Shown here in pieces: positions 5,508-21,286 of a DNA stretch of 32,336 nucleotides. The DNA comes from Sulfurovaceae bacterium. GTDB lineage: Bacteria > Campylobacterota > Campylobacteria > Campylobacterales > Sulfurovaceae. The position numbers and the translations under genes are program-made. Location of the stretch: the NCBI GenBank assembly GCA_029933395.1, contig JAOZOG010000003.1, positions 1 to 32,336 on the forward strand, written 5' to 3'. The first letter of the stretch is position 1. The number at the start of each line of letters is the position of its first letter. The notes below the pieces were generated by a model, which had not been told where the DNA came from, searched no databases, and was given only the letters and a program-made list of their open reading frames with translations.

Positions 5508-6368
5508 ATGCCAAAAGCAGGCCGCCGACATACCATCAGCCTGCTCTATGCAGCACTTGTTTATTTTCTGAGTGTTGTGCTGCTTCTGGCACTGCTCTAC
5601 TGGTTTCTTCTGCTCAATGGATTTGACAAGGCGGATTTTTTGCTGGGAGCGGGAGCTGTGGCGGTTTTGGCGATGATCCTGGGGTATATCCTCTCTGGCG
5701 ATATCCTGGCGCCCAAGCAGGAGATGGACGCGAGGTTTCTGCATCTGAGCAAAGAGATTCTGCACGAACTCAATCTGCCTCTGGCAACGATCGAAGCCAA
5801 CAGTAAAATGCTGAAAAAAGCACATAGTGATGAGAAAACACAGAAGCGGCTGAAACGTATCGATGCGGCTTCTGTACGGCTAAAGCGGCTCTATGATGAG
5901 CTGGTCTATACGATCAACAAAGAGATCTACAATGTAGAAAAAGAGCACTTCTCTCTCTTGGCGCTGATCGAAGAGCGGGTCGAGGCGATGAAGGAGCTTG
6001 GCCGCAATCCTTTTCATCTCGAAGTTTCAGACCGCACCCTTTTTGCCGACAGAATCGGTTTTGAGCAGATGGTCGACAACCTGCTCAGCAATGCGATGAA
6101 GTATAGCAGCAGGGAGGCACCGATCAGGATCGCTACCGAGGGAAACAAGCTGGTGATAGAGGATCAGGGCATCGGGATGAGCGAGAGTGAGCTGGTGCAG
6201 ATTTTTGAACGCTACTATCAGTCCGACAGTAAGCAAAAAGGGGAGGGGATCGGTCTGGCACTCGTCAAAGCGTATTGTGATGAAGCGAAAATAGGGATCG
6301 CGATCTTGTCGAAGCCGGGAGAGGGGACGACCGTAAAATTGGATTTAACACAGTGTATTGCTGCCTGA
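5508..6368 (+). CDS. Sensor histidine kinase with two closely spaced TM helices and no sizeable periplasmic domain
   Basis: H-box HELNLPLATIEAN, N-box LLSNAMKYS, G1 EDQGIGM and G2 GEGIGLALV are present. The start codon abuts the regulator stop (TAGATG). Confidence 0.9.
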   Translation: MPKAGRRHTISLLYAALVYFLSVVLLLALLYWFLLLNGFDKADFLLGAGAVAVLAMILGYILSGDILAPKQEMDARFLHLSKEILHELNLPLATIEANSKMLKKAHSDEKTQKRLKRIDAASVRLKRLYDELVYTINKEIYNVEKEHFSLLALIEERVEAMKELGRNPFHLEVSDRTLFADRIGFEQMVDNLLSNAMKYSSREAPIRIATEGNKLVIEDQGIGMSESELVQIFERYYQSDSKQKGEGIGLALVKAYCDEAKIGIAILSKPGEGTTVKLDLTQCIAA

Positions 6369-6377
6369 AAACCGGCC

Positions 6378-6409
6378 TTAACGGTGAATTAACATTCATT
6401 TGTTACACT
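6378..6409 (+). promoter_or_regulatory. TTAAC direct repeat (11-bp phase) plus N4 plus TACACT -10-like box upstream of tonB
   Basis: ttaacggtgaa at 6378-6388, ttaacattcat at 6389-6399, ttgt, then tacact at 6404-6409. The architecture matches those at 7319 and 20429. Confidence 0.5.
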
Positions 6410-6507
6410 GCTTCGTCCCAAAATAGACTTGCCTTCTACAGGGTTGCAGCGTTTTCCCCTCCTGATTGTGAGCGATGGTTTTGGGATAGACTCTATGGGA
6501 TGAGTGC

Positions 6508-7308
6508 ATGAGCCGATTGTCGGAACAAACAAAACGGGATATACTCTCTTTTTCTATCACGTTGTCACTCTATCTTGGCCTCTTTTTCCTGTGGATATAC
6601 GCTTTTCAAACACTCACACCCTCTTTGGTACAGCCCAATGTCAATACAGTCACACTGAATCTCGATGACTTCACAAAAGAGACCCCGGAAGATATACCCA
6701 TCGAGGAGAAGCAGGAAGAGACCGCAGATGAGCCGGAACCTGTCGAGCAGGAGGAAATGCAGAAGGAGGAGCCTGAGAAGAAAGAGCCAATCGAGGTACC
6801 GCAACCCGAGGAGCCGCCGACCCCCAAAGAGCCCGAACCGGAACCCATAGTCGAAGCCCCGCCACCTCAGCCTCTCAGCGAAAAACCCAAAGCGCAGGTC
6901 GTCGAAAAACCAAAGATCAAAAAACGCATGCCTAAAAAAGTCGCCAAAAAAAAGAGGCACACCAAAAAGAAGAAAAAAAGTGTCAAACGTCGCAGTTCCA
7001 GTGCCCCCAGAAAAGCGAGACGAAGCGGCGGTGTCGGCAGCAGCCGTTTTGTTGCCAGGCTCAAAGCCAAAATCAATGCGCACAAGAGTTATCCCCGTAT
7101 CGCACGAAAAAGAGGGATGCAGGGCAGTGTCAGGGTGAAGTTTCGCATCTCTTCGACAGGCAAACTCTCAGGACTCAGTGTATCGGGACCCCGAATCTTC
7201 CTCAACTCTGCCAGACAGGCAGTGAAGAGCGCTTTTCCTCTCTCCACGAGGGGGGCTTCTCTGCCTATGACAGTCAATCTGACACTGAATTACCACTTAA
7301 AAAAATAA
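6508..7308 (+). CDS. tonB: TonB-family energy transducer
   Basis: N-terminal TM helix, a Glu/Pro/Lys-rich spacer (..EEPPTPKEPEPEPIVEAPPPQP..), and a C-terminal TonB domain (YPRIARKRGMQGSVRVKFRISSTGKL). Confidence 0.88.
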   Translation: MSRLSEQTKRDILSFSITLSLYLGLFFLWIYAFQTLTPSLVQPNVNTVTLNLDDFTKETPEDIPIEEKQEETADEPEPVEQEEMQKEEPEKKEPIEVPQPEEPPTPKEPEPEPIVEAPPPQPLSEKPKAQVVEKPKIKKRMPKKVAKKKRHTKKKKKSVKRRSSSAPRKARRSGGVGSSRFVARLKAKINAHKSYPRIARKRGMQGSVRVKFRISSTGKLSGLSVSGPRIFLNSARQAVKSAFPLSTRGASLPMTVNLTLNYHLKK

Positions 7309-7318
7309 AATATACTGC

Positions 7319-7350
7319 TTAACACCAATTTAACAAATATTTATCATAAT
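7319..7350 (+). promoter_or_regulatory. TTAACA direct repeat (11-bp phase) plus N4 plus CATAAT -10 box upstream of the TonB-dependent receptor
   Basis: ttaacaccaat at 7319-7329, ttaacaaatat at 7330-7340, ttat, then cataat at 7345-7350. The ATG is at 7384. Confidence 0.55.
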
Positions 7351-7383
7351 TTTTCCACATCATTATAAAACAAGGAAGTCAAG

Positions 7384-9396
7384 ATGAAACATGCACTCTA
7401 TCTATCCGTCGTTTGCGCTTCAGCTCTCTTCGCTGCCGAGGCAGAGCTGGGTACGATTGACGTAGAGGCCAAATTCGATACGGAAGTGATCAGGGATGTC
7501 AGCGGGGAAGATATCAAATCTGCAGATGTGGCTGATGCCCTGATGAAGCAATCCCCCAGTGTCTCGCTGGTGAGACGAAGTGGAATTGCCAACGATATTA
7601 TCGTCAGAGGACAGAAGAAGGACAATATCAATGTCACGATCGACGGTGCCAAAGTCTGTGGTGCCTGCCCCAACCGTATGGATCCGCCGATATCACATGT
7701 GCTGACAAACAATATCGACTATATTGCGATCGAAGATGGCCCGTTCGATGTCGAAAGCTTCGGTGCGCTCAGTGCGGACGTCAAGGTGCAGACGCGCAAG
7801 CCGACCAAAGCGTTTTCGGGTGACGTAGGCCTCAACTTTGGAAGCTGGGATTACAAGAAAGCGTCTGCAATGGCCAGCGGCGGTTTCGACACAGTAAGGT
7901 TCCTGGTCAGTGTGTCCGGTGAACGGGGCGGGCAGTATGAAGATGGAGACGGCAACAATTTTTATCAGCAGGTCAACAACTATATCGCTGCCAACCTCAA
8001 TGGAGATCCTGAGCATGACAAAAAACTCAAGGCGCAGGCCTATAAGCCGCAGTACAGTGATATGGATGCCTTCACCAAAAAGACCGCGATGGCAAAAATG
8101 TTTTGGGATATCACGGATGCACAGCAGCTCAGGCTGAGCTACACAGGCAACAGAAGTGACGATGTACTCTATCCCAGTACGCCCATGGACGCACTCTACG
8201 ATGACTCCAATATCTACAATGCAGAGTACAGTGCCAAAGATCTGGGCCGATACTCAAAGCAGCTGGATATCCAGATCTACAAGTCGGATGTTGACCACCC
8301 TATGTCCAATATCTACAGAAAAGCATCCAATAAAAAATTGATGAAAAACTGGCTGACGACGGATATGAGAGGTGCGACGATCAAAAACCGTTTCGATGCA
8401 GACAATCATGAAATCACAGTGGGGATTGATTCCAGTCTGAGAAACTGGGACGGTGCCTATTTCGGGGCCGATGATGTTTATCTGGGTATCAGTATCCCCG
8501 ATGTCGATACCCGTAATATCGCTTTTTTTGCTGAAGACAAAATCACGCTTGACAAATTTGTCATAGATCTGGGGCTTCGCTATGATGATACCTCTATCAC
8601 TCCGGCCGGCACGCTTCGGGAAAATGATTATAATGCCCTGAATGGCCATATCGTAGGCACCTGGCACCAAGATGAGGATACAAAGATCTATTTGGGTATC
8701 GGCCGATCCTCCAGGGTGCCGGATGCAAAGGAACTCTATTTTCAAAAAGCAGGAAAAGTACTTGGCACACCGGATCTGGATCTTGTGACCAATACGGAAA
8801 TCGATCTTGGAGCCAAAAAGCAGTTTGAAAATGCTACCTTGGAAGCCAAACTCTTTTACAGTATGCTGGGGAATTTTATCTTCTACAATGCTGACAGAAT
8901 GGTGAATCGTTTTGAAAACATGGATGCAACGATTTATGGCTTTGAGTTGAGTGGTACCTATGTGGCGACAGATTCTATCTATTTTGATTATGGAATTGCT
9001 TATCAAAGAGGCGAAAAGGATAATCCTTTGAGTGGGCAGGCCGGAACCAATATGCCGGAAATCCCGCCACTGAAGCTGACAGCGGCCGTTAACTACGATT
9101 ATGATGCTACGGCGAATTTGAGGGCCGAATTTGTTGCTGCGCATCGTTGGGACGACGTCGACTATGAAAATGGCGAGCAGGTGCTTGCGGGCTGGGGAGT
9201 CGTCAATCTGAAGGGGACAAAAACATTCTATGATTCTCTCGAATTGACCATTGGTGTCGACAACCTGTTCGACAAGACTTATGCCATATCAAACACCTAT
9301 CAGGATTTGACACTGATCAGCGGTGGTGTCGGTGAAGTGATGTTGATGAATGAACCGGGCCGCTATATCTATGCCAATTTGAAATATACTTTCTAG
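7384..9396 (+). CDS. TonB-dependent outer-membrane receptor, OprC/NosA-like putative copper importer
   Basis: 670 aa. It has a signal peptide, a TonB-box-like GTIDVEA, a plug domain and a C-terminal ..NLKYTF. C95-P-N-R-M99 (nt 7666-7680) and H305-P-M307 (nt 8296-8304) reproduce the CxxxM...HxM copper site described for OprC. Confidence 0.85.
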   Translation: MKHALYLSVVCASALFAAEAELGTIDVEAKFDTEVIRDVSGEDIKSADVADALMKQSPSVSLVRRSGIANDIIVRGQKKDNINVTIDGAKVCGACPNRMDPPISHVLTNNIDYIAIEDGPFDVESFGALSADVKVQTRKPTKAFSGDVGLNFGSWDYKKASAMASGGFDTVRFLVSVSGERGGQYEDGDGNNFYQQVNNYIAANLNGDPEHDKKLKAQAYKPQYSDMDAFTKKTAMAKMFWDITDAQQLRLSYTGNRSDDVLYPSTPMDALYDDSNIYNAEYSAKDLGRYSKQLDIQIYKSDVDHPMSNIYRKASNKKLMKNWLTTDMRGATIKNRFDADNHEITVGIDSSLRNWDGAYFGADDVYLGISIPDVDTRNIAFFAEDKITLDKFVIDLGLRYDDTSITPAGTLRENDYNALNGHIVGTWHQDEDTKIYLGIGRSSRVPDAKELYFQKAGKVLGTPDLDLVTNTEIDLGAKKQFENATLEAKLFYSMLGNFIFYNADRMVNRFENMDATIYGFELSGTYVATDSIYFDYGIAYQRGEKDNPLSGQAGTNMPEIPPLKLTAAVNYDYDATANLRAEFVAAHRWDDVDYENGEQVLAGWGVVNLKGTKTFYDSLELTIGVDNLFDKTYAISNTYQDLTLISGGVGEVMLMNEPGRYIYANLKYTF

Positions 9397-9439
9397 CTTC
9401 ATCTGTCTGCCGGCATTCGTCTTTTGGCCGCTGCAGGCC

Positions 9440-9459
9440 GGCAGGCCCGGCTGCCTTTT
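9440..9459 (+). terminator. Weak intrinsic terminator candidate after the receptor gene
   Basis: ggcag-gcccgg-ctgcc followed by TTTT. A larger GC-rich dyad is also present (ctgccggc 9407-9414 with gccggcag 9437-9444). Confidence 0.35.
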
Positions 9460-9538
9460 GTGCCCATGTTTTCTATTTTTTCATAGCGATCATCAATAAA
9501 ATTTATTAAAAATAATCCAGAATATCGCTTTTTATCAC

Positions 9539-9560
9539 AGAAGTGTTAAAGAAGTGTTAA
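9539..9560 (-). promoter_or_regulatory. Two identical tandem 11-mers (TTAACACTTCT x2 on the minus strand) upstream of nosZ
   Basis: The plus strand reads agaagtgttaa agaagtgttaa. The core is the same TTAACA with 11-bp phase as at the other three sites, but the orientation is inverted. It ends 36 bp upstream of the Fnr-type box. Confidence 0.5.
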
Positions 9561-9595
9561 CTAATCAACGAATACCGCTGAAATTTGCCTTAAAA

Positions 9596-9609
9596 TTGAT
9601 GCATATCAA
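9596..9609 (+). promoter_or_regulatory. Crp/Fnr-family binding site, perfect TTGAT-N4-ATCAA, upstream of nosZ
   Basis: TTGATGCATATCAA, centred at 9602.5. TATGCT (9632-9637) would put the centre at about -41.5; TAGAAT (9638-9643) is the alternative -10 box. Confidence 0.65.
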
Positions 9610-9670
9610 GAAGAACTAAAGCAAAATCGCTTATGCTTAGAATTGGAATAACTTATAAAAAGGAGAAAGT

Positions 9671-12277
9671 ATGCTTAGCTTACACAAAAAGCTCTTCGGC
9701 TTGGCGGTTGGTGCCTGTGTCGCGACGACATTTGCATCTGCAGCCAGCGGCGAGCTTGACAAAGTGATGAAAGAGCGTGGCCTGACTCAGGCAGACCTGC
9801 TTGCAGCGGCGAAAACATATACGCCGAGTGGGGGGCGTGACAAATATATCATCTTCAGTTCGGGTGGTCAATCCGGACAGATTATGGTGTATGGTGTACC
9901 CTCTATGAGACTGCTCAAGTATATCGGTGTCTTTACGCCGGAGCCTTGGCAGGGATGGGGATATGATGACGATACCAAAAAGGTATTGGCGCAGGGTAAT
10001 ATTCGTGGTAAATCTATTACCTGGGGTGACACACACCACCCGGGACTTTCTGAAACAGATGGTAAGTATGACGGTAAATGGCTCGTTATCAATGACAAAG
10101 CCAACCCAAGACTTGCTGTGATAGATCTGACAGACTTTGTTACCAAGCAGATCGTCGTCAACCCGGTTTTCAAATCTGATCATGGTGGAGCATTCTTTAC
10201 GCCTAACTCCGAGTACATTCTCGAAGCGTGCCAGTATGCTGCACCATTCGACAACAACTATCACCCAATCGATGAGTATAAAGAGACTTATCGTGGCGGT
10301 GTAACAGTCTGGAAGTTCGACCACGAAAAAGGAAAGATCCTTCCTGAAGAGTCATTTACAATCGAAATGCCTCCTTATATGCAGGATCTTTCCGATGCCG
10401 GTAAAGCAGCGAGTAACGGTTGGGGATTTACCAACTCATTCAACTCCGAAATGTACACCGGTGGTATCGAAAAAGGTCTTCCTCCGTTTGAAGCGGGTAT
10501 GAGCCGTAACGATACCGACTTCCTCCATATGTACAACTGGAAGAAGCTGGCAGAACTGGCAAAAGATGACAAGAATGTCAAAGTTATCAACGGTCACCGT
10601 GTCATCCCTATGGATGTAGCCGTCAAAAATGATGCGCTTTTCCTGATTCCTGAGCCAAAATCACCTCACGGGGTAGATGTCTCTCCTGATGGTAAGAAGA
10701 TCGTTGTTTGCGGTAAACTTGATACCCATGCAACCGTTTACGATTTTGACAAATTGATGAACGCCATCAAGAATAAAGAGTATGCCGGTAAAGATCCCTA
10801 TGGTATACCTATCCTTGATATGAAGAAAACGATGCACTGCCAGGCAGAGTTGGGCCTGGGGCCACTGCATAACCAGTATGGATCCAATTGGGAAAAAGAG
10901 GGTGAGATCTATACCTCTCTCTATGTTGACTCCCAGGTTGTCAAGTGGAACTACCTGACGTGTAAAGTAGAAGATAGACAAAACGTCAACTACAACATCG
11001 GTCACCTTTGCGGAATGGAAGGGAAATCGGCAGACCCTCAGGGTGAGTATATCATCGCATTGAATAAGCTGGCGATCGATAGATTTAACGAGATTGGGCC
11101 TCTGCATCCGCAGAACCACCAGTTGATCGATATCCGCGGCAAGAAGATGCAGTTGCTTTACGATATGCCGGTACCTCTGGGTGAGCCACACCAGGCAGTC
11201 GCGATCAGAGCTGATAAGCTGCATACGCATGTACGCTATAAAATGGGAACAAATGCCTTCACAGGCGAGATTCACGAAGGTAAAACACTGGCAGGTCAGG
11301 AGAAGATCGTAAGAAAAGGTAACCATGTCTATATCTATGGAACGGTTGTCCGATCTCACATCAACCCTGAGCGTGTGACAGTGAATAAGGGCGATACGGT
11401 AACATTCTATCTCACCAACCTCGAAAGAGCAGAGGATGAGACACACGGATTTACAGTAGATACCTATAATGTCCACACGTCACTGGAGCCGGGCAAAACA
11501 GTTGCGGTCACATTCAAGGCAGATCTCGAAGGTGTCTTCCCGTACTACTGTACAGAGTTCTGTTCAGCACTTCACCTGGAGATGATGGGTTACCTGATGG
11601 TCAAAGACCCCAACAAGAAGTATGAGAAAGCAGCGAAGCTGAAAATAGCGGCAATGAGTCCTGAGCAGCTCAAAAAAGAGTATGATCAGACAGTAGCGGT
11701 CAACGATGCGACAGACAAAGTCATCCAGAGTGTTGTGAAATTCCTCAAAGAGAATCACTATGAGAAGTATCCAACAATCAAGGCACTGGTAGAAGATGCA
11801 CTGGATCAGTATGGCAAGATCCCTGAGCAGAAGAAGCAGGCGGATGAAGCGGTCAAAGCCGGTGATATGGAGAAAGCGATTCTCTTCGAAAATATGATCT
11901 GGCAGTATATGGTTAAGACAGCTGATGTCGGTATCCGTGCGAAAGACCTCCTGGTCAAAAAAGTAGCCAAGCCTATGAGTGATGCTGCCAAGCGTGGTGA
12001 AGCGGCTTATCTCGAAGGTGGATGTAACGGATGTCACGTTATTGGAAAAGTATCTTCAGGTCCAGACTTGACAGGTGTTCTCCAGAGACATGAGAATGGT
12101 GAGAAGTGGGTAGCCGAGTGGATCATGCATCCAGAAACTATGTATGACAATGACTACATCAAGTCAATGGTCAACTACTTCAACCTCCGTATGCCTAACC
12201 AGGGTATGACGGAAGAGCAGACTAAAGATATCATCGAATATCTGAAGTGGATCGACGAAAACGCGAATCTCTTCTAG
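9671..12277 (+). CDS. nosZ: Nitrous-oxide reductase, clade II type with a C-terminal monohaem cytochrome c domain (cNosZ)
   Basis: 868 aa. The CuA motif is C627-TEF-C-SAL-H-LE-M (nt 11549-11584), and the CNGCH haem c motif is at residues 785-789 (nt 12023-12037). The N-terminal signal has no twin-arginine, so it is Sec-type. The beta-propeller-length N-terminal part also fits. Confidence 0.95.
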   Translation: MLSLHKKLFGLAVGACVATTFASAASGELDKVMKERGLTQADLLAAAKTYTPSGGRDKYIIFSSGGQSGQIMVYGVPSMRLLKYIGVFTPEPWQGWGYDDDTKKVLAQGNIRGKSITWGDTHHPGLSETDGKYDGKWLVINDKANPRLAVIDLTDFVTKQIVVNPVFKSDHGGAFFTPNSEYILEACQYAAPFDNNYHPIDEYKETYRGGVTVWKFDHEKGKILPEESFTIEMPPYMQDLSDAGKAASNGWGFTNSFNSEMYTGGIEKGLPPFEAGMSRNDTDFLHMYNWKKLAELAKDDKNVKVINGHRVIPMDVAVKNDALFLIPEPKSPHGVDVSPDGKKIVVCGKLDTHATVYDFDKLMNAIKNKEYAGKDPYGIPILDMKKTMHCQAELGLGPLHNQYGSNWEKEGEIYTSLYVDSQVVKWNYLTCKVEDRQNVNYNIGHLCGMEGKSADPQGEYIIALNKLAIDRFNEIGPLHPQNHQLIDIRGKKMQLLYDMPVPLGEPHQAVAIRADKLHTHVRYKMGTNAFTGEIHEGKTLAGQEKIVRKGNHVYIYGTVVRSHINPERVTVNKGDTVTFYLTNLERAEDETHGFTVDTYNVHTSLEPGKTVAVTFKADLEGVFPYYCTEFCSALHLEMMGYLMVKDPNKKYEKAAKLKIAAMSPEQLKKEYDQTVAVNDATDKVIQSVVKFLKENHYEKYPTIKALVEDALDQYGKIPEQKKQADEAVKAGDMEKAILFENMIWQYMVKTADVGIRAKDLLVKKVAKPMSDAAKRGEAAYLEGGCNGCHVIGKVSSGPDLTGVLQRHENGEKWVAEWIMHPETMYDNDYIKSMVNYFNLRMPNQGMTEEQTKDIIEYLKWIDENANLF

Positions 12278-12290
12278 GATCTGCAAAAAT

Positions 12291-12313
12291 ACAGGAGACT
12301 CTCCGTCTCCTGT
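12291..12313 (+). terminator. Hairpin after nosZ (9-bp stem, 5-nt loop), no T-tract
   Basis: acaggagac-tctcc-gtctcctgt, starting 14 nt after the nosZ stop. Confidence 0.45.
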
Positions 12314-12371
12314 TACCAAATAACCCCTAAACTATAATCAACTCTTATTTTATATATAATTTTAACTTCAC

Positions 12372-12413
12372 TTGATATTTATCAAGCAGCTCTTTATAAC
12401 TTTGCAGTAGAAT
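12372..12413 (+). promoter_or_regulatory. Crp/Fnr-family box TTGATATTTATCAA plus TAGAAT -10 at class II spacing, upstream of nosB
   Basis: The box is at 12372-12385, centred at 12378.5. TAGAAT at 12408-12413 places the centre at -41.5 relative to a start near 12420. Confidence 0.65.
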
Positions 12414-12465
12414 GTAAAAGGAAATAAAAATGGGTACAATAACCCATTCATAAAAAGGATCAATA

Positions 12466-13248
12466 ATGAGTTCTTTGGCAAAAGCGAGAATTTTTACACT
12501 GTTGGCACTGGGCATACTGCTCTACTGGTTTGTCGTACCGGCAGTTTTGACGCACAATGTCGTTGAAATGGGACGGCAGGGGAAGGGAGACAAGATCTCT
12601 GACCTCACTGTAAAAGCTTGGGATTATTATCAAAAGGGACGCTATGTTTCGCCCAATATACCCAAAGAGGATGCCAACAATCTGAAGAAGATGATTGAGG
12701 ACGATATGGAGCTGAATGTGGTCACTGCGCCACTCTGGTATGTTTCGCTCGAAGCGCCCAACTACCCAAAAGATGCCTTCCCTGAGGGTATTCCTGTCTT
12801 TTACCACTTCGACGGCTTCAGTGGAGACGTCCATGAGATGAATACGATCAACCACTATATCGGAATGGACCCTATGGAGAGAGGCGCACCCTATCTGCGT
12901 ATGTTGGCCCCCTATGCTTTGATCTTCGTAGCCTGGATCTTCGCGATGTTTATGATTTACAACAACAGGTTGTTGAATCTTCTGATGCTGGTACCGATAT
13001 CTCTGCCTCTGATCTTCGTAGGATTCTACTCCTACTGGCTCTACTGGTTCGGTCACCATATGCATGACTGGGGTGCTTTCAAAATCAAACCATTTACACC
13101 GACAGTTTTTGGAGATGGCAAAGTGGCACAATTCACGACCCACTCCTATCCGAGTATCGGCTTTTGGCTCTTGGTGGCGATCAGTGTTTTGAGTATCCTG
13201 GCACTGGCAGCCAAGCGAAAATATCAAAAAAGCGAACAAGCAGCCTGA
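12466..13248 (+). CDS. nosB: NosB membrane protein (specific to clade II nos clusters)
   Basis: 260-aa membrane protein with a periplasmic-looking middle segment. Its position directly after nosZ and before nosD matches the Wolinella-type cluster. There is no independent motif, so the call rests on context. Confidence 0.75.
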   Translation: MSSLAKARIFTLLALGILLYWFVVPAVLTHNVVEMGRQGKGDKISDLTVKAWDYYQKGRYVSPNIPKEDANNLKKMIEDDMELNVVTAPLWYVSLEAPNYPKDAFPEGIPVFYHFDGFSGDVHEMNTINHYIGMDPMERGAPYLRMLAPYALIFVAWIFAMFMIYNNRLLNLLMLVPISLPLIFVGFYSYWLYWFGHHMHDWGAFKIKPFTPTVFGDGKVAQFTTHSYPSIGFWLLVAISVLSILALAAKRKYQKSEQAA

Positions 13249-13249
13249 A

Positions 13250-14473
13250 ATGATAGGTAAAATCATAGTTTCCGCAATGGCGATGATACAGATTGTGTCA
13301 GCCGGCAACCTTTTGCAGGAAGCTATCGATAAGGCAAAACCGGGATCACGGCTGGAGCTTCCGGCCGGTGTCTACCGCGGCAATATCGTGATCGACAAAC
13401 CGTTGATCATCGACGGCAAGGATCAGAAAGCTGTGATCGAAGGTGACGGCAAGGGTACGGTGGTCAGGATCAGCAGTTCCGGCGTCACCATCAAGAATCT
13501 TACGATCAGGCACAGCGGGGCTCAGCATGAGAGAGTAGATGCGGGTGTCGCGCTGGAGAAAGTGAAACAGTGCACCGTTGAAAACTGTAAGATTATTGAT
13601 TGCCTCTTTGGTATTGATATGAATGAAGTGAGCAACTCGGAGATCGTTGGAAACTATATCGAGTCCAAACCTTTCGATCTGGGTGTACGGGGTGATGGTG
13701 TGCGGCTCTGGTATAGCAATGACAACCACCTCAGTGAAAACCATCTCTATAAATCCCGGGATTTTGTCGTATGGTACTCACATGGAAATCTGATCGAAAA
13801 AAATATCGGTGAATATGGCAGATACTCTCTGCACTTTATGTATACCGGTAAGAATTTTGTCAAAAACAATACATACAAGCACAACTCCGTGGGAATTTTC
13901 TTTATGTACTCGCGCGATACGATCGCGACGGGCAATCTGGTGCAAAACTCCATGGGGACGACCGGCCTGGGTATTGGACTGAAAGATGCCAGCAATTTTA
14001 CGATCAAAGACAATACAATCATCTATTGTGCAAGAGGACTCTATGTGGATCGCTCTCCATTTGAGCCTGATACAATCAATCTGATCGAGGGGAATCGTAT
14101 CATTTACAACAGCGAGGGGGTGCATTTTCACTCTCTGAGTCTGCATAACCGTTTTGTCAACAATATATTCAAGGGGAATATTGAAAGTATTGTCAATGAT
14201 TCCTATAATACGAAAATTACGGAAAACTACTTTGACGGCAACTATTGGGATGATTATGAAGGATTTGACAGAAACAGTGACGGTACAGGTGATACACCCT
14301 ATCACTACTATGCCTATGCCGACAAGGTTTGGCTTCTCAATCACAATGTCAAATTCTTTTACGGTTCGCCCGTGATTTCGATCCTCAATTTTCTTGCAAA
14401 GCTGGCACCTTTTTCCGAGCCGGTACTGCTCTTGAGCGATAAACATCCAAAAATGCACGAAGGACAGGTCTGA
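13250..14473 (+). CDS. nosD: NosD, periplasmic right-handed beta-helix component of the NosDFY maturation complex
   Basis: 407 aa with a signal peptide and repeated beta-helix turns (..NLTIRHSG.., ..NCKIIDC.., ..GNYIES.., ..NNTYKHNSVGIF.., ..DNTIIYCARGLY..). The gene starts 1 nt after the nosB stop. Confidence 0.9.
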   Translation: MIGKIIVSAMAMIQIVSAGNLLQEAIDKAKPGSRLELPAGVYRGNIVIDKPLIIDGKDQKAVIEGDGKGTVVRISSSGVTIKNLTIRHSGAQHERVDAGVALEKVKQCTVENCKIIDCLFGIDMNEVSNSEIVGNYIESKPFDLGVRGDGVRLWYSNDNHLSENHLYKSRDFVVWYSHGNLIEKNIGEYGRYSLHFMYTGKNFVKNNTYKHNSVGIFFMYSRDTIATGNLVQNSMGTTGLGIGLKDASNFTIKDNTIIYCARGLYVDRSPFEPDTINLIEGNRIIYNSEGVHFHSLSLHNRFVNNIFKGNIESIVNDSYNTKITENYFDGNYWDDYEGFDRNSDGTGDTPYHYYAYADKVWLLNHNVKFFYGSPVISILNFLAKLAPFSEPVLLLSDKHPKMHEGQV

Positions 14474-15297
14474 TGGAACAGATAGAGAAAAAAAAGAGCC
14501 TCAAAGAGGAACAGAAAAGACGAAAGTTCATGAAGCAGGTAGCAGGCCTTGGTGTTCTGGGACTTGCTTCTGCCGGCGGAATATGGGCAGCGAAAGATTT
14601 CAAGCCGGATAAGGCGAGACTGCGTCCCCCTGGCGCAGTACCAGAGGATCAATATTTGACAATGTGTATCAAGTGCGGTCAGTGCCTGCAGGTCTGTCCT
14701 TACGATTCGATCCTGCTGGAAGATTATGATGGCAAGGCGGGTGTGGGAACGGCCTATATCGCTCCTCTGGAGAGAGGCTGCTACCTCTGTGAAGCCTTTC
14801 CATGTGTATTGGCCTGTCCCACGGGCGCATTGGATCATGAGGCCAATGTCATCGAGAAGGTCCATATGGGAATGGCGATCATTGTCAATGAAAGTGCATG
14901 TATCGCACTGAAAAATGAAAAAGTGACATCGGAGATGATCGGCAGGATCTATGATCATACCAAGGTGATCACCCCCGAAGAGCGCCAAAGTCGAAAGGTC
15001 GAGGTCGACCCCAACGAACCGGAGAAGGTTATATTGCAAAAAGAGCTTTTGCAAAAGCTCAGCAAGCAGGAGGGTAAAGTCTGTACACTTTGTGCAGAGC
15101 TGTGTCCTTTCGAGCCTGATCCCACTCTGGCGATCGGTATGATCTCCAAGGATGGTGGGCTCTTCCCTGAGATACGGGAAGCCTGTGTCGGATGCGGTGC
15201 CTGTGTAGAGCTCTGCCCGACCAAAGTACTCCAGATTCTTCCTGGGGCCAGTTATGCAGATGTCTATCAGAAAAACAAAGGAGCAGAAAATGCTTAA
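14473..15297 (+). CDS. nosG: NosG, NapG-like Tat-exported polyferredoxin
   Basis: Twin-arginine signal QKRRKFMKQVAGLGVL. Four Cys clusters are present: CIKCGQCLQVCP, CYLCEAFPCVLACP, CTLCAELCP, CVGCGACVELCP. The start overlaps the nosD stop (TGATG). Confidence 0.9.
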   Translation: MEQIEKKKSLKEEQKRRKFMKQVAGLGVLGLASAGGIWAAKDFKPDKARLRPPGAVPEDQYLTMCIKCGQCLQVCPYDSILLEDYDGKAGVGTAYIAPLERGCYLCEAFPCVLACPTGALDHEANVIEKVHMGMAIIVNESACIALKNEKVTSEMIGRIYDHTKVITPEERQSRKVEVDPNEPEKVILQKELLQKLSKQEGKVCTLCAELCPFEPDPTLAIGMISKDGGLFPEIREACVGCGACVELCPTKVLQILPGASYADVYQKNKGAENA

Positions 15298-15853
15298 TCG
15301 ATTATGGTTGCTTCCGGTTGGGGCAGCGCTTGTACTGCTCAGCGGATGTGGTGATGACAAAAAGAAAACAGAAACGGAAACGGCGACAAAAACAGACGCT
15401 ATTGTCGTAACGGAGGGCGCCGTCAAGGAGCTCAAAGAGACAAAAGGCAAAGAGAACAGCGGCCAATTCTACTACTCTTATAACAAAGAGAAAAATACCA
15501 GCGAGTATAACTCTGAGGAGAACAAGGTCAGAACGGAGCTGGATGCCTACCGGGATATCCGTTCCCCTTATGAGCGTGTGCAGATTACTCTGATGGTTCA
15601 GCAGCTCAGCCCGGATTATCGGCTGCTATGTTCTGCCTGTCATGACGATTATGCCAATGGCGTGATTGGGCCAGCCTTGCTGGATAAAAATTCGGAGTAT
15701 ATCTTCAAACAGATTATGGCATTCAAGACCGGTGAAAAGAAAAATGCCTTGATGAAAGATCTCGTATCGAGAATCGGTGAAGAGCGACTGAAGGGGATTG
15801 CGGTGGAGATCGAGAGATTCAATAGACAAGTTCAAGAAATGAGGAGTAAATAG
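15290..15853 (+). CDS. nosC1: NosC1, monohaem cytochrome c lipoprotein
   Basis: From ATG 15290 the protein begins MLNRLWLLPVGAALVLLSGC (lipobox LSGC), with RBS aaaggag at 15277-15283. It has a single CSACH haem motif. The start overlaps the nosG stop by 8 nt. Confidence 0.85.
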   Translation: MLNRLWLLPVGAALVLLSGCGDDKKKTETETATKTDAIVVTEGAVKELKETKGKENSGQFYYSYNKEKNTSEYNSEENKVRTELDAYRDIRSPYERVQITLMVQQLSPDYRLLCSACHDDYANGVIGPALLDKNSEYIFKQIMAFKTGEKKNALMKDLVSRIGEERLKGIAVEIERFNRQVQEMRSK

Positions 15854-16389
15854 TGATCAAGCATATTATAGCGGCTGTGGTGACACTGCTGGCAGCATGG
15901 GCAATGTTTTTGGTGTATCAGTCAGACAAAGAGGTAAATAAACTCGAAGAGATACAGAAAATGATCAAGAAGACGCAGGTCAAAGTCAATCTGGGCAATA
16001 CAGAAAGTGTGACTCAAGAGAGTGCAGCGACTGAGAAAGCATCAAGCGAGAGCGTAGAGAAAGAGCAGGCGAAAAAGAAACAAGAGCTTGATGAAAAACT
16101 CCAGGCACTCAAAAACAAAGCAGGGAATGTCGCAGCATTCAAAGTCAGTCCGCTCTATAAGCAGAAGTGTGCCTCCTGTCATGGTGTCAATGGTGAGGGA
16201 ATCATCGGTCCCAAATTGATCGGGGACAGCAGCGAAAAGATCCACCAGGCACTTCTGGAGTTCAAATCAGGCAAAAGAAAGAACTATGTTATGTATGGTC
16301 TTTTGAGCAAGATGGACGAGGGGCAACTGAAGGAGCTCTCCGATGAGATCGGTACATTCGAACAGAAGCTGCAGGAGATGCAGAAGTAG
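15853..16389 (+). CDS. nosC2: NosC2, membrane-anchored monohaem cytochrome c
   Basis: N-terminal TM helix and a single CASCH motif. Its C-terminal part is paralogous to NosC1 (..GVIGP.L......I.Q....FK.G..KN.....L.......L..). Confidence 0.85.
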   Translation: MIKHIIAAVVTLLAAWAMFLVYQSDKEVNKLEEIQKMIKKTQVKVNLGNTESVTQESAATEKASSESVEKEQAKKKQELDEKLQALKNKAGNVAAFKVSPLYKQKCASCHGVNGEGIIGPKLIGDSSEKIHQALLEFKSGKRKNYVMYGLLSKMDEGQLKELSDEIGTFEQKLQEMQK

Positions 16390-16445
16390 CAATGCGGCAG
16401 GATCCCGAGGGATCTTCACTCCGGTGTGTGATAAAAGGATAGTGA

Positions 16446-17357
16446 ATGGACAGGTATAATGATAGTATCAGAGCGCTGGTCAACGCCCCTCTGTTGAGTA
16501 CACTCTATTACAAAAGCAGGGAGGGTAAGTTTCGGCTCACCCTGAGAGCATGGAGATGGTTGATCGTCATTGTGATCAATCTTCTCTTTTTCCTCTCTTT
16601 CCATATTGACTTGCAGTTGCTGGAAGGAACATTGAATGGATCGAGGCTTTTTGGTTTTCACCTGATTGACCCCTTTACTGCATTGGAGATTTTCGCTGCT
16701 GAGCACCACTTCCATATCAATGTGATTATAGGAAGTGTCACGCTGATTGTATTTTATCTTCTGGTAGGCGGTAAGGCATATTGTGCCTGGGCGTGTCCCT
16801 ATGGTGTTCTCAGCGAAATCGGTGAACGAATCAATCAAATACTGGTTCGAAAGAAACTGATCAAAGAGCATCGCTTCAACCCCAATGTACGTTTTGTTTT
16901 CTGGGGTATCTTTCTGGCTGCAGCCGCAATCGACGGATATCTTGTTTTTGAAGTGATCAACCCAATCGGTTATCTGAGCCGTGCGATCACCTATGGATGG
17001 AGTCTCGCTTTTGTCTGGGTATTCGTCGTTCTGGCAATCGAAATATTCTACTCCAGAAGAGCCTGGTGTAAATATATCTGTCCGGTAGGAACCACTTATA
17101 ATATGCTGGGTTGGGTCAGTGCCACCAAAGTACAGTGGGATATGAACAAGTGTGATCACTGTGGCGCCTGCCTCAGCGCATGCTTTGAAGATCATGTGCT
17201 GGAATTTATCAAACCGAAATACGATAAAGAACGTGCCGAAAAGGGTGTCGAGAAGCAGTTGGTCATCAATGGTGACTGTACGCTCTGTGGTCGATGTTTC
17301 GATGTCTGCCATACTGACGCCTATAATTACGAGTTCAGATTGAAGGATTTGGTATAG
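16446..17357 (+). CDS. nosH: NosH, NapH-like membrane-bound iron-sulfur protein (putative quinol dehydrogenase subunit)
   Basis: Multiple TM helices, two CxxCP motifs (CAWACPYG, CKYICPVG) and two ferredoxin-type motifs (CDHCGACLSAC, CTLCGRCFDVC). Confidence 0.9.
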   Translation: MDRYNDSIRALVNAPLLSTLYYKSREGKFRLTLRAWRWLIVIVINLLFFLSFHIDLQLLEGTLNGSRLFGFHLIDPFTALEIFAAEHHFHINVIIGSVTLIVFYLLVGGKAYCAWACPYGVLSEIGERINQILVRKKLIKEHRFNPNVRFVFWGIFLAAAAIDGYLVFEVINPIGYLSRAITYGWSLAFVWVFVVLAIEIFYSRRAWCKYICPVGTTYNMLGWVSATKVQWDMNKCDHCGACLSACFEDHVLEFIKPKYDKERAEKGVEKQLVINGDCTLCGRCFDVCHTDAYNYEFRLKDLV

Positions 17358-17999
17358 ATGCTGGTTGTAGCCAAAAATGTCAGTAAGAAATTTATGGGAA
17401 GCTATGTTCTTGACAAAGTGAATATTACGATCAACAGCGGAGACCGCATCGCGATGATGGGGCCCAACGGTGCAGGGAAAACAACGCTGGTGAGGGCAAT
17501 ACTCGGCTTCTATCATATCGACAGCGGTGAGATCTCTGTCAAGGGTTTCGATCCTGTCAAAAAAAGAGTCGAAGTTTTGAAGCATATCAGTTTCATTCCG
17601 CAGCTGCCGCCACCGGTAAAATTGAGTCTCGAAGAGCTCCTGGTTTATGTGGAGCGCAGTTCCGGAGTCTCGAGAAAAAAGATTTTTGAAGAGTCTGCCA
17701 GGATGGATCTGGATCTGAAGAGTCATATCTCAAAGCCCTTTTTCAAACTTTCGGGCGGGATGAAGCAGAAACTGCTTATCGCTATCGCCCTCTCCAAAAA
17801 GAGTGAGCTTCTGATCTTCGATGAGCCGACAGCCAATCTTGACCCCAAGGGGCGGGAAAAATTCTATGAATTGCTGACAGAGATCGACCCGGCCTGCTCG
17901 ACACTCTTTATTACCCATAGGCTGGATGAGATCGAGGGTCTGGTCAATCGAAAGATCTATATGGATCTCGGGAGTGTGACAGAAGATGAGAAGATTTAG
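17358..17999 (+). CDS. nosF: NosF, ABC ATPase of NosDFY
   Basis: Walker A GPNGAGKTT, signature LSGGMKQKL and Walker B LLIFDEPT. The start abuts the nosH stop. Confidence 0.9.
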   Translation: MLVVAKNVSKKFMGSYVLDKVNITINSGDRIAMMGPNGAGKTTLVRAILGFYHIDSGEISVKGFDPVKKRVEVLKHISFIPQLPPPVKLSLEELLVYVERSSGVSRKKIFEESARMDLDLKSHISKPFFKLSGGMKQKLLIAIALSKKSELLIFDEPTANLDPKGREKFYELLTEIDPACSTLFITHRLDEIEGLVNRKIYMDLGSVTEDEKI

Positions 18000-18492
18000 T
18001 CCTGCCGGCTTCTCGCCAATTGCTTTTTTTGCGACTATCTTGTTTGCGACACTCTTTTTGCTGAGCTTTTCCGGCTGCGAAAAAAAGCCGATCGGTGCGG
18101 TCGACAAGATGCACTGGGACAGGGATATGTGCGAACGCTGCAAAATGGCGATCAGCGATCGCAAATTTGCCGCTCAGATCATCGACCCGAAAAGCGGCAA
18201 AGTCTATAAGTTTGACGACATCGGTTGCGCGGTTCTATGGATGGATGAGACAAATATCCCCTGGAGAGATCAGGCGATTATCTGGGTGACCGATGCAAAA
18301 ACAGGCAAGTGGATCGATGCGAGAAAAGCAAAGTATACCGATGAATCGATTACGCCAATGGCATACGGATTTGCTGCCCATAGTGATGAGACACTTCCGC
18401 CGGACAGTCAGGTACTGAATTTTGGGAAAGTTAGCGAAAAGATCAGAGAGATCGAAAAAATAAACAGTGAAAAGCTGAGGTCATATAAGTGA
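17986..18492 (+). CDS. nosL: NosL-family copper chaperone lipoprotein
   Basis: Lipobox LSFSGC. The NosL-type pattern is present: D-M-C49-ER-C52-K-M54-AISDRKFAAQ...FDDIGC...W..A..A.Y....TPMAYGF. The gene overlaps nosF by 14 nt and nosY by 4 nt. Confidence 0.8.
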   Translation: MRRFSPAGFSPIAFFATILFATLFLLSFSGCEKKPIGAVDKMHWDRDMCERCKMAISDRKFAAQIIDPKSGKVYKFDDIGCAVLWMDETNIPWRDQAIIWVTDAKTGKWIDARKAKYTDESITPMAYGFAAHSDETLPPDSQVLNFGKVSEKIREIEKINSEKLRSYK

Positions 18493-19316
18493 AAAATCTT
18501 TTTTTAATTGCGTATCTGGATGTCAAAGAGTCTCTTCGTTCCAAATGGTTCTATGTCTATGCACTTATCTTTGGCGGCCTGATGGCACTCTTTTTTGTTA
18601 CGGGTGTCTCCGACTCCGTTGTGATGGGTTTTACGGGACTGAGCCGAATGCTTCTGATCTTCATCCAGGTGACGATCATTATCCTGCCGATTTTTATCCT
18701 CATCACGACAGTCAAGTCGATCTCCGGTGACAGGGAGAGCAATGTACTTGAGTATATGCTCTCTTTTCCTGTCTCTCTCAAGGATTACTACTGGGGCAAG
18801 ATGCTGGGACGCTTTTCGACCGTTTTCCTGCCTGTATTTCTGGCACTTTTGATGGGTGTAGTTTTCGGGCTTTTCAGCGGGGGAGAAATGCCGTGGAAAA
18901 TGGTCTTTCTCTACTCTGCACTCCTTTTCTCGCTCAGTTTTGTCTTTCTGGGTTTGGCTTTTTTCCTCTCGACGATAGTCAAGTCGACAGATGTCGCACT
19001 GGGCAGCTCTTTTGTTGTCTGGATCGCTATGCTGGCTTTTATCGACATTGCCCTGATGGGACTGATGCTGCAGAACAGGCTGAGCGATGAGGTAATTATC
19101 ACTATCGCGATGCTCAACCCTATTGAAGTCTTTCGGATCGGTGCGATCTCCCTCTTCGATCCGGAACTGACAGTGATCGGCCCGGTCGCTTACTATCTGC
19201 TGGATACACTGGGAGCCAAACTCCTGATGGTCTACGCGCTGGTCTATCCTATACTTGTAGGCGCTCTTTTTGCTTATTTTGGGTATATTGCTTTTAGAAA
19301 AAAAGATCTTTTATAA
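18489..19316 (+). CDS. nosY: NosY, ABC-2 type permease of NosDFY
   Basis: 275 aa with six predicted TM helices. GTG start in a GTGA overlap with the preceding gene. Confidence 0.88.
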   Translation: MKNLFLIAYLDVKESLRSKWFYVYALIFGGLMALFFVTGVSDSVVMGFTGLSRMLLIFIQVTIIILPIFILITTVKSISGDRESNVLEYMLSFPVSLKDYYWGKMLGRFSTVFLPVFLALLMGVVFGLFSGGEMPWKMVFLYSALLFSLSFVFLGLAFFLSTIVKSTDVALGSSFVVWIAMLAFIDIALMGLMLQNRLSDEVIITIAMLNPIEVFRIGAISLFDPELTVIGPVAYYLLDTLGAKLLMVYALVYPILVGALFAYFGYIAFRKKDLL

Positions 19317-19325
19317 GGAAATACT

Positions 19326-19790
19326 ATGAAAAAGCTACTATTGGCGCTGTTGCTTTGTGCAGGAACGCTTCCGGCAGGAGAGATCAGCCCTGTCGATCAA
19401 AACAGTACGGACCCCGTCTATCAGCTTGCTTTGAAAAAATATCCCAAATGGCTCTGTGAAGCAACACTTGAGAATGGAAAAGTGATGCAGTTTGTTTCGG
19501 TCAAATCGATGATGCAGGTCTATTATCATCAGGAGTATTTTATCAAGCACAAATTGATGGAGAGTCCAATCAAGGCACTCTATGTACAGGATTATATGAG
19601 TGGAGAGAGGATCGATGCAACAAAGGCAGTCTATCTTTTCGGGAGCAAAATTGTCGGCCCGCATGGGGATGACCTGATCCCTTTCGCTTCGGAAGAGCGC
19701 GCAAAACTTTTTATGATGAAAAATGCCGGAACGAAAATTTTACCTTATACGAAGCTGACCAAAGGATTGATTCGCTACCTGGATATGTGA
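19326..19790 (+). CDS. NosL-like periplasmic protein lacking the CxxCGM ligand motif
   Basis: The C-terminal half (YVQDYMSGERIDATKAVYLFGSKIVGPHGDDLIPFASEERAKLFM..) aligns with the NosL paralogue at 21336 (VTDFYTLEGIPAKEAYYVTGSNLFGPMGNELIPFKTEEAAKNFM..). The N-terminal YPKW is retained, but CPVCGM is absent. Confidence 0.75.
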   Translation: MKKLLLALLLCAGTLPAGEISPVDQNSTDPVYQLALKKYPKWLCEATLENGKVMQFVSVKSMMQVYYHQEYFIKHKLMESPIKALYVQDYMSGERIDATKAVYLFGSKIVGPHGDDLIPFASEERAKLFMMKNAGTKILPYTKLTKGLIRYLDM

Positions 19791-19869
19791 GCCGCGACAA
19801 GAAAAAGAGATCTGTGCATCGTTTTAGTCGAGAGGACTGAAGCTATCTATTTGATAAAATTCCAAAAGG

Positions 19870-20400
19870 ATGAATACTATGAAGAGACCGGAACCAATTG
19901 ATGAAGAGATCATACTCAAAAACAATGTCTATATCGAGAGCGATACCGATACCAAAGGGATCATCACCTACTGTAATGACTATTTCGCCGAAATTTCAGG
20001 CTACAGCAAAGAGGAGCTGATCGGGCAGCCGCACAGTATTGTCCGGCATCCCGATATGCCCAGGATACTCTTCAAGATCCTTTGGGATCGCATACAAAGC
20101 GGGCAGAACTTCGTTGCCGCAGTCAAAAATCTTGCCAAAGACGGACGATACTATTGGGTTTTTACCGATTTTGAAGTGCTTAAAGATGAAAATGGTGATA
20201 TTGTCGGATATAAAGCTTCCAGAAAGAAAATCTCAAAACATGTAACGGATGTACTCGATCCTATCTATAGAAAACTGGTCGAGATCGAAAAAGAGGGCGG
20301 TATGGAAGCGTCAGAAAAATATTTGACAGAGTTCCTGCACTCCCATGGCAGTGATATCACGGTGGACAATATGCTCGAAGAGATCCATCGGCTATACTAA
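19870..20400 (+). CDS. Stand-alone Aer/CetB-like PAS (FAD-type) sensor protein
   Basis: TDTKGIITYCNDYFAEISGYSKEELIGQPHSIVRHPDMP...KNLAKDGRYYWV closely follows the Aer PAS-FAD signature. There is no output domain. ATG 19879 is an alternative start. Confidence 0.85.
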   Translation: MNTMKRPEPIDEEIILKNNVYIESDTDTKGIITYCNDYFAEISGYSKEELIGQPHSIVRHPDMPRILFKILWDRIQSGQNFVAAVKNLAKDGRYYWVFTDFEVLKDENGDIVGYKASRKKISKHVTDVLDPIYRKLVEIEKEGGMEASEKYLTEFLHSHGSDITVDNMLEEIHRLY

Positions 20401-20428
20401 GCGGGATGTGTCAGAGTTTAGCTCCTCT

Positions 20429-20460
20429 TTAACATGGATTTAACACTAACTAACGATAAT
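20429..20460 (+). promoter_or_regulatory. TTAACA direct repeat (11-bp phase) plus N4 plus GATAAT -10 box
   Basis: ttaacatggat at 20429-20439, ttaacactaac at 20440-20450, taac, then gataat at 20455-20460. The ATG is at 20489. Confidence 0.55.
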
Positions 20461-20488: not shown

Positions 20489-21241
20489 ATGAAAAAAGTT
20501 CTATTGGCGCTTCTGGTGCTTGCAGGAATGACGAGTATCGCAAATGCGGAGATGAAGTGTGCACCGGGGAAATGTGCGGCAGGCAAATGTGGTGCTGCAA
20601 TGAAATCAGGCAATAAGCCTAAAAAAATGACGAAGATGTTTCAGATGGTACCGGCAGACAAGGCGACGATCCTGCAAAAAGGGGATGCCAAAATGTTCTG
20701 TCCCGAGTGCGGTATGACACTGCCGATGTTCTACAAGACCAACCACGCGGCAACGGTAGATGGCAAAGTGAAACAGTACTGCTCTATCCATTGTGTTGTG
20801 GAGGATATGAAAAAAGGCTCCAAGCTGGAAGATATCAAAGTGGTCGATGTCAAAAGCTTGAAGTTTATCCCGGCTGAAAAAGCTTTTTATGTCGTAGGCA
20901 GCAGCAAAAAGGGAACGATGACGATGGTCAGCAAGTATGCGTTTGCCAACAAAGTCGATGCTGAAGCTTTTGCCAAAGAGAATGGGGGCAAGGTGGTTGA
21001 CTTCAAAGGTGCGTTGAAAGCGGCAGAAGATGATTTTGACAAGGACAGCACCATGATTGCCAAAAAGCAGAAGATGATGGCGCAAAAAGGTGAGATGATG
21101 TATGGCAAAATGTGTCAGAAGACAGACAAGAAGTTTGCCACTACAGCAGAGGCAAAAGCCTTTATTGTAGAGAATAAACTCTGCAAAGATTTGAATCCGA
21201 AGCAGTTGCAGGCAGTGGGACTCTACCTGAAGAGCAGATAA
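20489..21241 (+). CDS. Secreted multi-module putative copper-binding protein: (GKCxx)3 tract, TRASH/YHS-like Cys4 motif, NosL-like domain, Met-rich tail
   Basis: A signal peptide ends ..SIANA and is followed by EMKCAPGKCAAGKCGAA. Next comes C71-PE-C74-X23-C98-SIH-C102. The NosL-like segment is AFYVVGSSKKGTMTMVSKYAFANKVDAEAFAKENGGKVVDF. Met-rich runs include KKQKMMAQKGEMMYGKM. Confidence 0.7.
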   Translation: MKKVLLALLVLAGMTSIANAEMKCAPGKCAAGKCGAAMKSGNKPKKMTKMFQMVPADKATILQKGDAKMFCPECGMTLPMFYKTNHAATVDGKVKQYCSIHCVVEDMKKGSKLEDIKVVDVKSLKFIPAEKAFYVVGSSKKGTMTMVSKYAFANKVDAEAFAKENGGKVVDFKGALKAAEDDFDKDSTMIAKKQKMMAQKGEMMYGKMCQKTDKKFATTAEAKAFIVENKLCKDLNPKQLQAVGLYLKSR

Positions 21242-21268
21242 GAACCTTCGCAGTTGGTGCTTGTTTTG

Positions 21269-21286
21269 CTCCGCACTTCTGCGGGG
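21269..21286 (+). terminator. Hairpin terminator candidate
   Basis: ctccgca-cttc-tgcgggg (7-bp stem including one G-U pair) followed by taaaattt, 28 nt after the stop. Confidence 0.45.

Follow-up and report, generated by a model that had tools for sequence, protein, structure and literature searches.

In a 32,336-nucleotide stretch of a Sulfurovaceae genome (contig JAOZOG010000003.1, hereafter the window), four intergenic sites carry a doublet of the hexamer TTAACA with an 11-bp period. To judge from their conservation and gene context, these doublets very probably constitute the operator of the adjacent OmpR/PhoB-family response regulator (RR) and define its regulon: tonB, the gene for a TonB-dependent receptor (TBDR) of the OprC/NosA copper type, a probable NosL-like operon, and nosZ, which encodes nitrous oxide (N2O) reductase (Table 1). 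The predicted regulon ties copper-type outer-membrane import to nosZ in Sulfurovum-like bacteria and would be a new regulon of a familiar type of regulator; its less ordinary feature is the composite promoter at nosZ, which combines the RR site with a Crp/Fnr-type box. A sequence-only reading of the same DNA had proposed a shared operator and a small regulon, with the neighbouring RR and histidine kinase as the regulatory pair. Our comparative analysis bears out the first proposal, since the doublet is kept upstream of orthologous TBDR genes, tonB, the NosL-like gene and nosZ, and gives the second the support of association: the doublet is the top period-11 pair near RR orthologues and is almost absent near distant RRs, which points to the RR as its putative binder.

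Table 1. Features of the window associated with the TTAACA doublets (positions refer to the whole window)
Feature	Position	Strand	Sequence or basis
OmpR/PhoB-family response regulator of 222 aa, the candidate regulator at the doublets	4839..5507	+	Pfam Response_reg and Trans_reg_C
Histidine kinase (286 aa)	5508..6368	+	Pfam HisKA and HATPase_c
Extra TTAACA half-site, in phase with the tonB doublet, within the 3′ end of the kinase gene	6345..6350	+	33 bp (3 x 11) upstream of 6378
tonB promoter	6378..6409	+	6378 TTAACGGTGAATTAACATTCAT-ttgt-TACACT; doublet TTAACGGTGAA-TTAACATTCAT 6378-6399; TG 6401-6402; -10 TACACT 6404-6409
TonB-family protein (tonB)	6508..7308	+	Pfam TonB_C
TBDR promoter	7319..7350	+	7319 TTAACACCAATTTAACAAATAT-ttat-CATAAT; doublet TTAACACCAAT-TTAACAAATAT 7319-7340; -10 CATAAT 7345-7350
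TonB-dependent receptor, OprC/NosA copper type	7384..9396	+	Pfam plug and barrel domains
nosZ-proximal doublet	9539..9560	-	AGAAGTGTTAA twice on the + strand = tandem TTAACACTTCT twice on the - strand
Crp/Fnr-type box, perfect	9596..9609	+	TTGATGCATATCAA; TTGAT-N4-ATCAA
nosZ, clade II type, with C-terminal cytochrome c domain	9671..12277	+	Pfam
Second Crp/Fnr-type box, perfect	12372..12385	+	TTGATATTTATCAA; between nosZ and the following nos gene
NosL-like operon promoter	20418..20460	+	degenerate half-site TTAGCT 20418; 20429 TTAACATGGATTTAACACTAAC-taac-GATAAT; doublet TTAACATGGAT-TTAACACTAAC 20429-20450; -10 GATAAT 20455-20460
Probable NosL-like operon	20489..24155	+	two NosL-domain proteins, small open reading frame, FtsX-type permease, ABC ATPase (Pfam)

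The pattern TTAAC-N6-TTAAC has four exact matches in the window, where 0.04 are expected, and none of 100 dinucleotide-preserving shuffles reached four; a comparison with shuffled sequence had been proposed in the sequence-only reading, and the four doublets listed there are all present. All four are intergenic. Three lie in direct orientation relative to the gene downstream, while the fourth is inverted, a direct repeat directed away from nosZ. A scan for TTAACAN5TTAACA allowing up to two mismatches added only in-phase extensions of these sites and two coding matches at chance level, so that no other intergenic region of the window carries a doublet, in agreement with what had been claimed before. 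The same scan gave no sign of an autoregulatory doublet upstream of the RR gene in the window; in two related loci (L011 and L018) a doublet precedes the fabG-like gene located before the RR gene.

We compared 80 loci centred on RR homologues (39–75% identity), drawn from a scan of one genome per species and split at 48% RR identity into 50 loci at or above and 30 below this value. Exact TTAAC-N6-TTAAC pairs numbered 58 in the former group versus one in the latter. When all hexamers repeated at 10 or 11 bp were ranked with no motif assumed, TTAACA at period 11 was the top pair in the RR orthologue group (42 observed versus 0.17 expected, in 30 loci); TTAACA at period 10 was not among the enriched pairs. 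The loci of a Sulfuricurvum-type RR group yielded TAACACTT at 11 bp, seen as the variant TTAACACTTTTGTAACACTT (TTAACAC + GTAACAC), and those of a third RR clade a different period-11 repeat, TTCATACT. Because the ranking returns distinct repeats for the different clades, each RR clade has a nearby period-11 repeat of its own. RR orthologues of 48–95% identity are numerous in uncultured Sulfurovum-like Campylobacterota, and the region of their recognition helix (SxGSxRVYIxxLKK) is conserved. The genes follow the order GT4-iPGM-TerB-FabG-RR-HK-[variable island]-FabF-AccA, HK being the histidine kinase, and the variable island is built from differing combinations of tonB, the receptor gene, the nos cluster and the NosL-like/ABC block. 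The doublets have been kept although the protein-coding sequences have diverged to 52–88% identity.

The doublets might instead be bound by a different protein encoded elsewhere, with the RR/HK pair a bystander. The association was examined in loci chosen for containing the RR, and binding by the RR is predicted, both of which leave room for such a protein; we nevertheless consider it quite improbable. An 11-bp period in direct repeats is characteristic of winged-helix regulators of the OmpR/PhoB family. In the window the doublet begins 10 bp past the stop codon of the kinase gene, and in dozens of other genomes the distance is similar (10–20 bp); different RR clades have different period-11 repeats nearby, and a metagenome scan that was not conditioned on the RR still found the kinase or receptor gene upstream of the nosZ site.

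A position weight matrix of 55 unique sites gave the consensus a-TTAACAC-tnAn-TTAACAC-T-nnn-tTGt-cATAcT. The A28 and T32 of the −10 hexamer keep the same offset in 42 of the 46 sites from seven gene classes (receptor 18/21, tonB 8/9, PGM 8/8, other TBDR 3/3, NosL-like 2/2, exbB 2/2, cytochrome 1/1), and a TG often precedes the hexamer at positions 24–25. In the three direct doublets of the window, the gap between doublet and −10 hexamer is 4 bp. With the −10 at positions 27–32, the half-sites would occupy about −38 to −33 and −27 to −22 relative to the predicted starts. The two TTAACA hexamers end 20 and 9 bp ahead of the −10, neither of which is the distance of a −35 element. This spacing bears directly on the idea that TTAACA is a mere −35-like hexamer or an accident of AT-rich DNA. 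The hexamer matches TTGACA at five of six positions, and a simple promoter scan does report TTAACA-17 bp-TATCAT at 7319. However, two copies are conserved at exactly 11 bp, about 450 kb of comparable AT-rich control loci contained a single exact pair, and shuffled sequence gives 0.04 per window. We rejected TTAACA as a −35 hexamer on its spacing to the conserved −10, and we give this explanation as a whole practically no weight.

The layout is instead that of a pho box, as the sequence-only reading had suggested: one orientation, with A28 and T32 at the same offset throughout the seven gene classes. Like the pho box of Escherichia coli PhoB, the site consists of two direct repeats with an 11-bp period in a single orientation, occupies the −35 region and is paired with a regulator of the receiver plus winged-helix type. 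The core of the pho box ends 10 bp upstream of the −10, and the 18-bp core of the window sites stops 9 bp upstream of it. The systems differ in the half-site (CTGTCAT versus TTAACAC here), in signal and regulon, and in the nosZ site, which is inverted and far upstream.

Since orientation and offset are fixed across non-orthologous promoters, a class II activator is favoured over a simple roadblock repressor, and we consider activation at class II-type sites likely. The alternative keeps the same RR and the same sites but has the phosphorylated RR repress the uptake promoters when copper is sufficient, by blocking RNA polymerase at −38 to −17. The site does overlap the core promoter, and many of the −10 hexamers have the TG extension and might fire without an activator. 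Campylobacterota promoters generally function without a −35 element. OprC and NosA, furthermore, are copper-repressed in Pseudomonas (PMC8610252). Repression, however, needs neither a single orientation nor an exact −10 offset, yet both are kept in seven non-orthologous promoter classes; many of the −10 hexamers are weak (CATACT, TACACT), which fits activator dependence; and the nosZ site, at −61 or −91, lies outside the core promoter. We therefore hold repression to be unlikely, though it is the alternative that we take most seriously.

At nosZ the doublet forms part of a composite promoter. Downstream of the inverted doublet stands a perfect Crp/Fnr-type box, and a candidate −10 (TATGCT, 9632–9637) follows 22 nt past the box, which puts the box centre at about −41.5 relative to the predicted start. 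Alignment of the upstream regions of four relatives (L005, L006, L012 and L017) gave the same succession of inverted doublet, perfect TTGAT-N4-ATCAA and, 23 nt on, TATAAT, so that the palindrome falls near −42. The inverted doublet lies upstream of nosZ in five of five genome loci, the window included, and in about 40 metagenomic contigs, and the gene preceding the composite is that of the receptor (window, L005) or the kinase (L006, L012, L017). The gap between doublet and box is 3–4 bp in the four relatives (doublet centre about −61) versus 35 bp in the window (about −91). A metagenome search with TGTTAA-N5-TGTTAA-N(3-33)-TTGAT-N4-ATCAA, which did not presuppose the RR, returned 93 stretches. 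A gap of 3–4 bp was found in 41 of them: 30 continue into nosZ, seven end at a contig edge, and four are unrelated and without the nosZ-type −10. Five further stretches have four in-phase half-sites and a gap of 24 bp, and gaps of 13 and 15 bp occur once each. Wherever the upstream gene of the nosZ-linked cases is visible, it encodes the kinase or the receptor; the other matches scatter across the whole range of gaps and lack nosZ. Differences among the gaps of 3–4, 13, 15, 24 and 35 bp come close to whole helical turns. With about four independent variants, this phasing is a suggestive hint of a face-dependent interaction, and the displacement of the nosZ site by whole turns slightly favours co-activation.

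The nosZ box is most simply read as a target of Nss-type regulators. In Wolinella succinogenes, NssA, NssB and NssC, which are of the Crp/Fnr type, up-regulate N2O reductase (PMC6682613), and a review of Campylobacterota respiration names no regulators of nos other than Nss. The arrangement here resembles Nss control in its perfect TTGAT-N4-ATCAA at about −41.5 of nosZ, with another before the next nos gene, and differs in the additional RR doublet beside the box, of which we found no description in the literature searched. The second box suggests a separate Nss/Fnr-type promoter for the nos accessory genes. These form a clade-II-type set that follows nosZ up to NosL, ends at 19790 and is succeeded by a gene for a PAS protein (Pfam). 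No Crp/Fnr-family gene is encoded in the window, as judged by Pfam. In Salmonella, PhoP boxes are found in either orientation and at differing distances, and PhoP may offer an analogy for the mixed layout, in which some promoters have a direct site overlapping the −35 region and another, dependent also on a second factor, has an inverted site upstream; its regulator, motif and organism are unrelated to those considered here, and the likeness is by analogy only.

Two options had been raised for the inverted site: an upstream regulatory site, or the promoter of a short minus-strand transcript. The conserved composite speaks for the former. For the latter, the minus strand of the window does read TTAACACTTCTTTAACACTTCT-gTGa-TAAAAA, a TG and a hexamer of A and T both falling at the canonical offset. 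Across 43 unique nosZ-linked sites, however, no −10 is conserved on that strand (A28 0.52, T32 0.34, no TG), neither a terminator nor an open reading frame follows on it in the window, and in L006, L012 and L017 such a transcript would read into the terminal part of the kinase gene. We rejected the minus-strand promoter on the unconserved −10 and the absent terminator, and regard it as very improbable.

The genes behind the direct doublets are likewise conserved targets. All orthologous receptor genes in 16 other loci (52–71% protein identity) have the exact doublet 40–200 bp upstream. The orthologues of tonB have it in eight loci, and two more (L005 and L031) have the one-mismatch form TTAATA+TTAACA with the −10 offset unchanged. 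The NosL-like/FtsX/ABC block is syntenic in L001, L024 and L045; its NosL-like gene is preceded by the exact doublet in L024 and by the one-mismatch form TTAACG+TTAATA, with TATTAT at the same offset, in L045. The NosL-domain proteins of this separate block are encoded at 20489–21241 and 21336–22013. Four open reading frames of the window match the NosL domain, the other two, at 17986–18492 (weak) and 19326–19790, both lying inside the nos cluster. In L045–L049, three of which are Arcobacter genomes, the doublet stands ahead of exbB and other TBDR genes. In the Sulfuricurvum-type loci L050–L070 only a few bases separate the kinase gene from exbB downstream, and the variant TTAACACTTTTGTAACACTT lies about 2.5 kb upstream of the RR gene, before a phosphoglucomutase-like gene (e.g. 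L056:7516, L056:~11465). From this kinase–exbB and variant-site context, the TonB link of this two-component family reaches beyond Sulfurovum.

The receptor matches no PDB sequences but OprC chains, with which it shares an identical GACPNRMD. Its CxxxM motif (CPNRM) comprises residues 95–99 and its HxM motif (HPM) residues 305–307, and both are present in 12 of 13 Sulfurovum-type orthologues. In OprC the copper ligands are Cys143 and Met147 of CxxxM together with His323 and Met325 of HxM (PMC8610252). The best NCBIfam match of the receptor is TonB-copper (TIGR01778), at 171.5 bits and thus below the cutoff of 472, which makes it a distant member of that family. The likeness to OprC of Pseudomonas aeruginosa and NosA of P. 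stutzeri extends to the plug and barrel, GACPNRMD with CxxxM, and HxM, whereas sequence similarity outside the motifs is low. There is also a genomic and functional tie to N2O reductase of the kind proposed for NosA (PMC8610252). In Pseudomonas, the copper-responsive regulator of oprC is stated to be unknown (PMC8610252), whereas here a candidate regulator and operator are visible. A target set made up of a TonB system, a receptor bearing the OprC copper site, NosL-domain proteins and NosZ, itself a copper enzyme, points to copper status as the most likely signal, and in the Sulfurovum group we would put copper somewhat above an even call.

The kinase had been described as an intramembrane-type sensor with two transmembrane helices and a short loop, and this description stands. 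Hydropathy analysis placed two hydrophobic segments at about residues 9–38 and 42–68, joined by a linker of about seven residues (NGFDKAD); the topology is kept in the alignment of orthologues, and no periplasmic, PAS or HAMP domain was found in the kinase. No NCBIfam equivalog matched the RR or the kinase. The closest biological relative of the pair may be CrdRS of Helicobacter pylori (HP1365/HP1364). It is the copper-responsive system of another member of the Campylobacterota, with an OmpR-type RR that needs paired AC-rich motifs, and it has been linked to copper and nitrosative stress (PMC9696931). The CrdR core at crdA, AACACC-ATTT-CCACAA, is identical to window positions 7321–7336 (AACACCAATTTAACAA) at 13 of 16 positions, the core being quoted second-hand in a preprint (bioRxiv 10.64898/2026.06.29.735229). 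The two systems differ in that CrdS is described with a periplasmic input domain, in place of the short loop of this kinase, and in that CrdR activates copper efflux and resistance genes (crdAB, czcBA), while the regulon predicted for the window consists of uptake-type genes and nosZ.

We propose that the kinase, which lacks a sensor domain, would phosphorylate the RR, whose dimer would then bind the doublets. At the uptake genes a head-to-tail RR dimer would cover about −38 to −17, leaving 4 bp to a −10 that is often extended and taking the place of a −35 contact, and from this pho-box-like class II position would activate tonB, the OprC-like receptor gene and the NosL-like/ABC operon. At nosZ, the RR on its inverted upstream site would provide a second input to a class II promoter of the Crp/Fnr (Nss) type. 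There it might help or hinder, and the system might fire under copper limitation or under copper availability. We have reasonable, moderate confidence in this explanation as a whole, in which the RR would activate the uptake genes directly and modulate the Nss/Fnr-type nosZ promoter, with copper the most likely signal.

Several points weigh against it. RR-centred sampling builds the adjacency of site and regulator partly in. The Sulfuricurvum-type RRs have slightly divergent sites but closely similar recognition helices, so that RR specificity is not sharply resolved. A site spanning −38 to −17 could equally be that of a repressor. No doublet lies ahead of the NosL-like gene in L001. Finally, the receptors controlled in the distant relatives L045–L048 (including Arcobacter) lack the copper motif, so copper may not be the signal across the family.

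As a prediction, this is an ordinary product of comparative genomics, a regulon assigned to a regulator family that is well understood. Its interest lies in the biology: copper supply limits N2O reduction and hence N2O emission, and little is known of how bacteria control the import of ionic copper. In sulfidic habitats, where copper is presumably in short supply, Sulfurovum-like Campylobacterota abound as N2O reducers. The operator, the candidate regulator and the composite nosZ promoter offer handles on how copper status could gate N2O respiration, and the doublet motif can be used in reading metatranscriptomes. In the literature searched, we found no description of a TTAACA doublet, or of a two-component link between TonB copper uptake and nosZ, in Campylobacterota.

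In three Arcobacter genomes (L046:17037-17168, L048:17973-18100, L049:14858-14990), a TTAACA doublet with a −10 is followed by a non-coding unit of about 95 nt, which in L046 spans about 17075-17168. The unit would fold into a hairpin whose loop exposes UUCUCCU, an anti-Shine-Dalgarno-like sequence, and then into a terminator hairpin with a U-run (fold z = −6.7), the latter showing compensatory changes between the genomes. We regard it as a candidate RR-dependent small RNA. Since this copy of the doublet precedes a unit that ends in a terminator, the doublet module behaves as a promoter. Rfam gave no match in the window or the three Arcobacter loci, and no homologue of the small RNA was found in the window or the Sulfurovum loci. 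A broader speculation, which we consider doubtful, is that the family represents a two-component system for copper acquisition rather than resistance across Campylobacterota. The sensor-less kinase would read import through TonB-ExbBD and the OprC-like receptor, or its copper flux, and the RR would wire import to nosZ through the composite promoter. The Arcobacter anti-Shine-Dalgarno RNA could then spare copper, as RyhB spares iron, and acquisition may have been the ancestral role of CrdRS.

Some further sequences resemble the doublet sites. L043 (13679-15101) has, beyond the receptor gene, an open reading frame of 448 aa headed by a doublet and a canonical −10. This reading frame gives weak cytochrome bd subunit I-like and cytochrome c matches below the Pfam cutoffs and may be a further regulon member. 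In-phase TTAAC(T/C) repeats occur in L006 (~4453), L009 (~4379-4390) and L010 (~3937, minus strand), upstream of a conserved porin-like outer-membrane gene (400–480 aa, no Pfam match) that lies beyond a glycosyltransferase gene. None of these three has a −10 at the canonical offset, and they may belong to the regulon or be an AT-rich coincidence.

Two features of the window stand apart from the doublets. A perfect 24-bp inverted repeat (GTAGCGTGGGCATTCCTGCCCACG / CGTGGGCAGGAATGCCCACGCTAC) with a 20-nt loop occupies 4721–4788, between the fabG-like gene and the RR gene; it occurs once in the window, is not followed by a T-run and was not found in the related loci. At the left edge, on the minus strand (303–659), lies an open reading frame that matches the '23S rRNA-intervening sequence protein' family.

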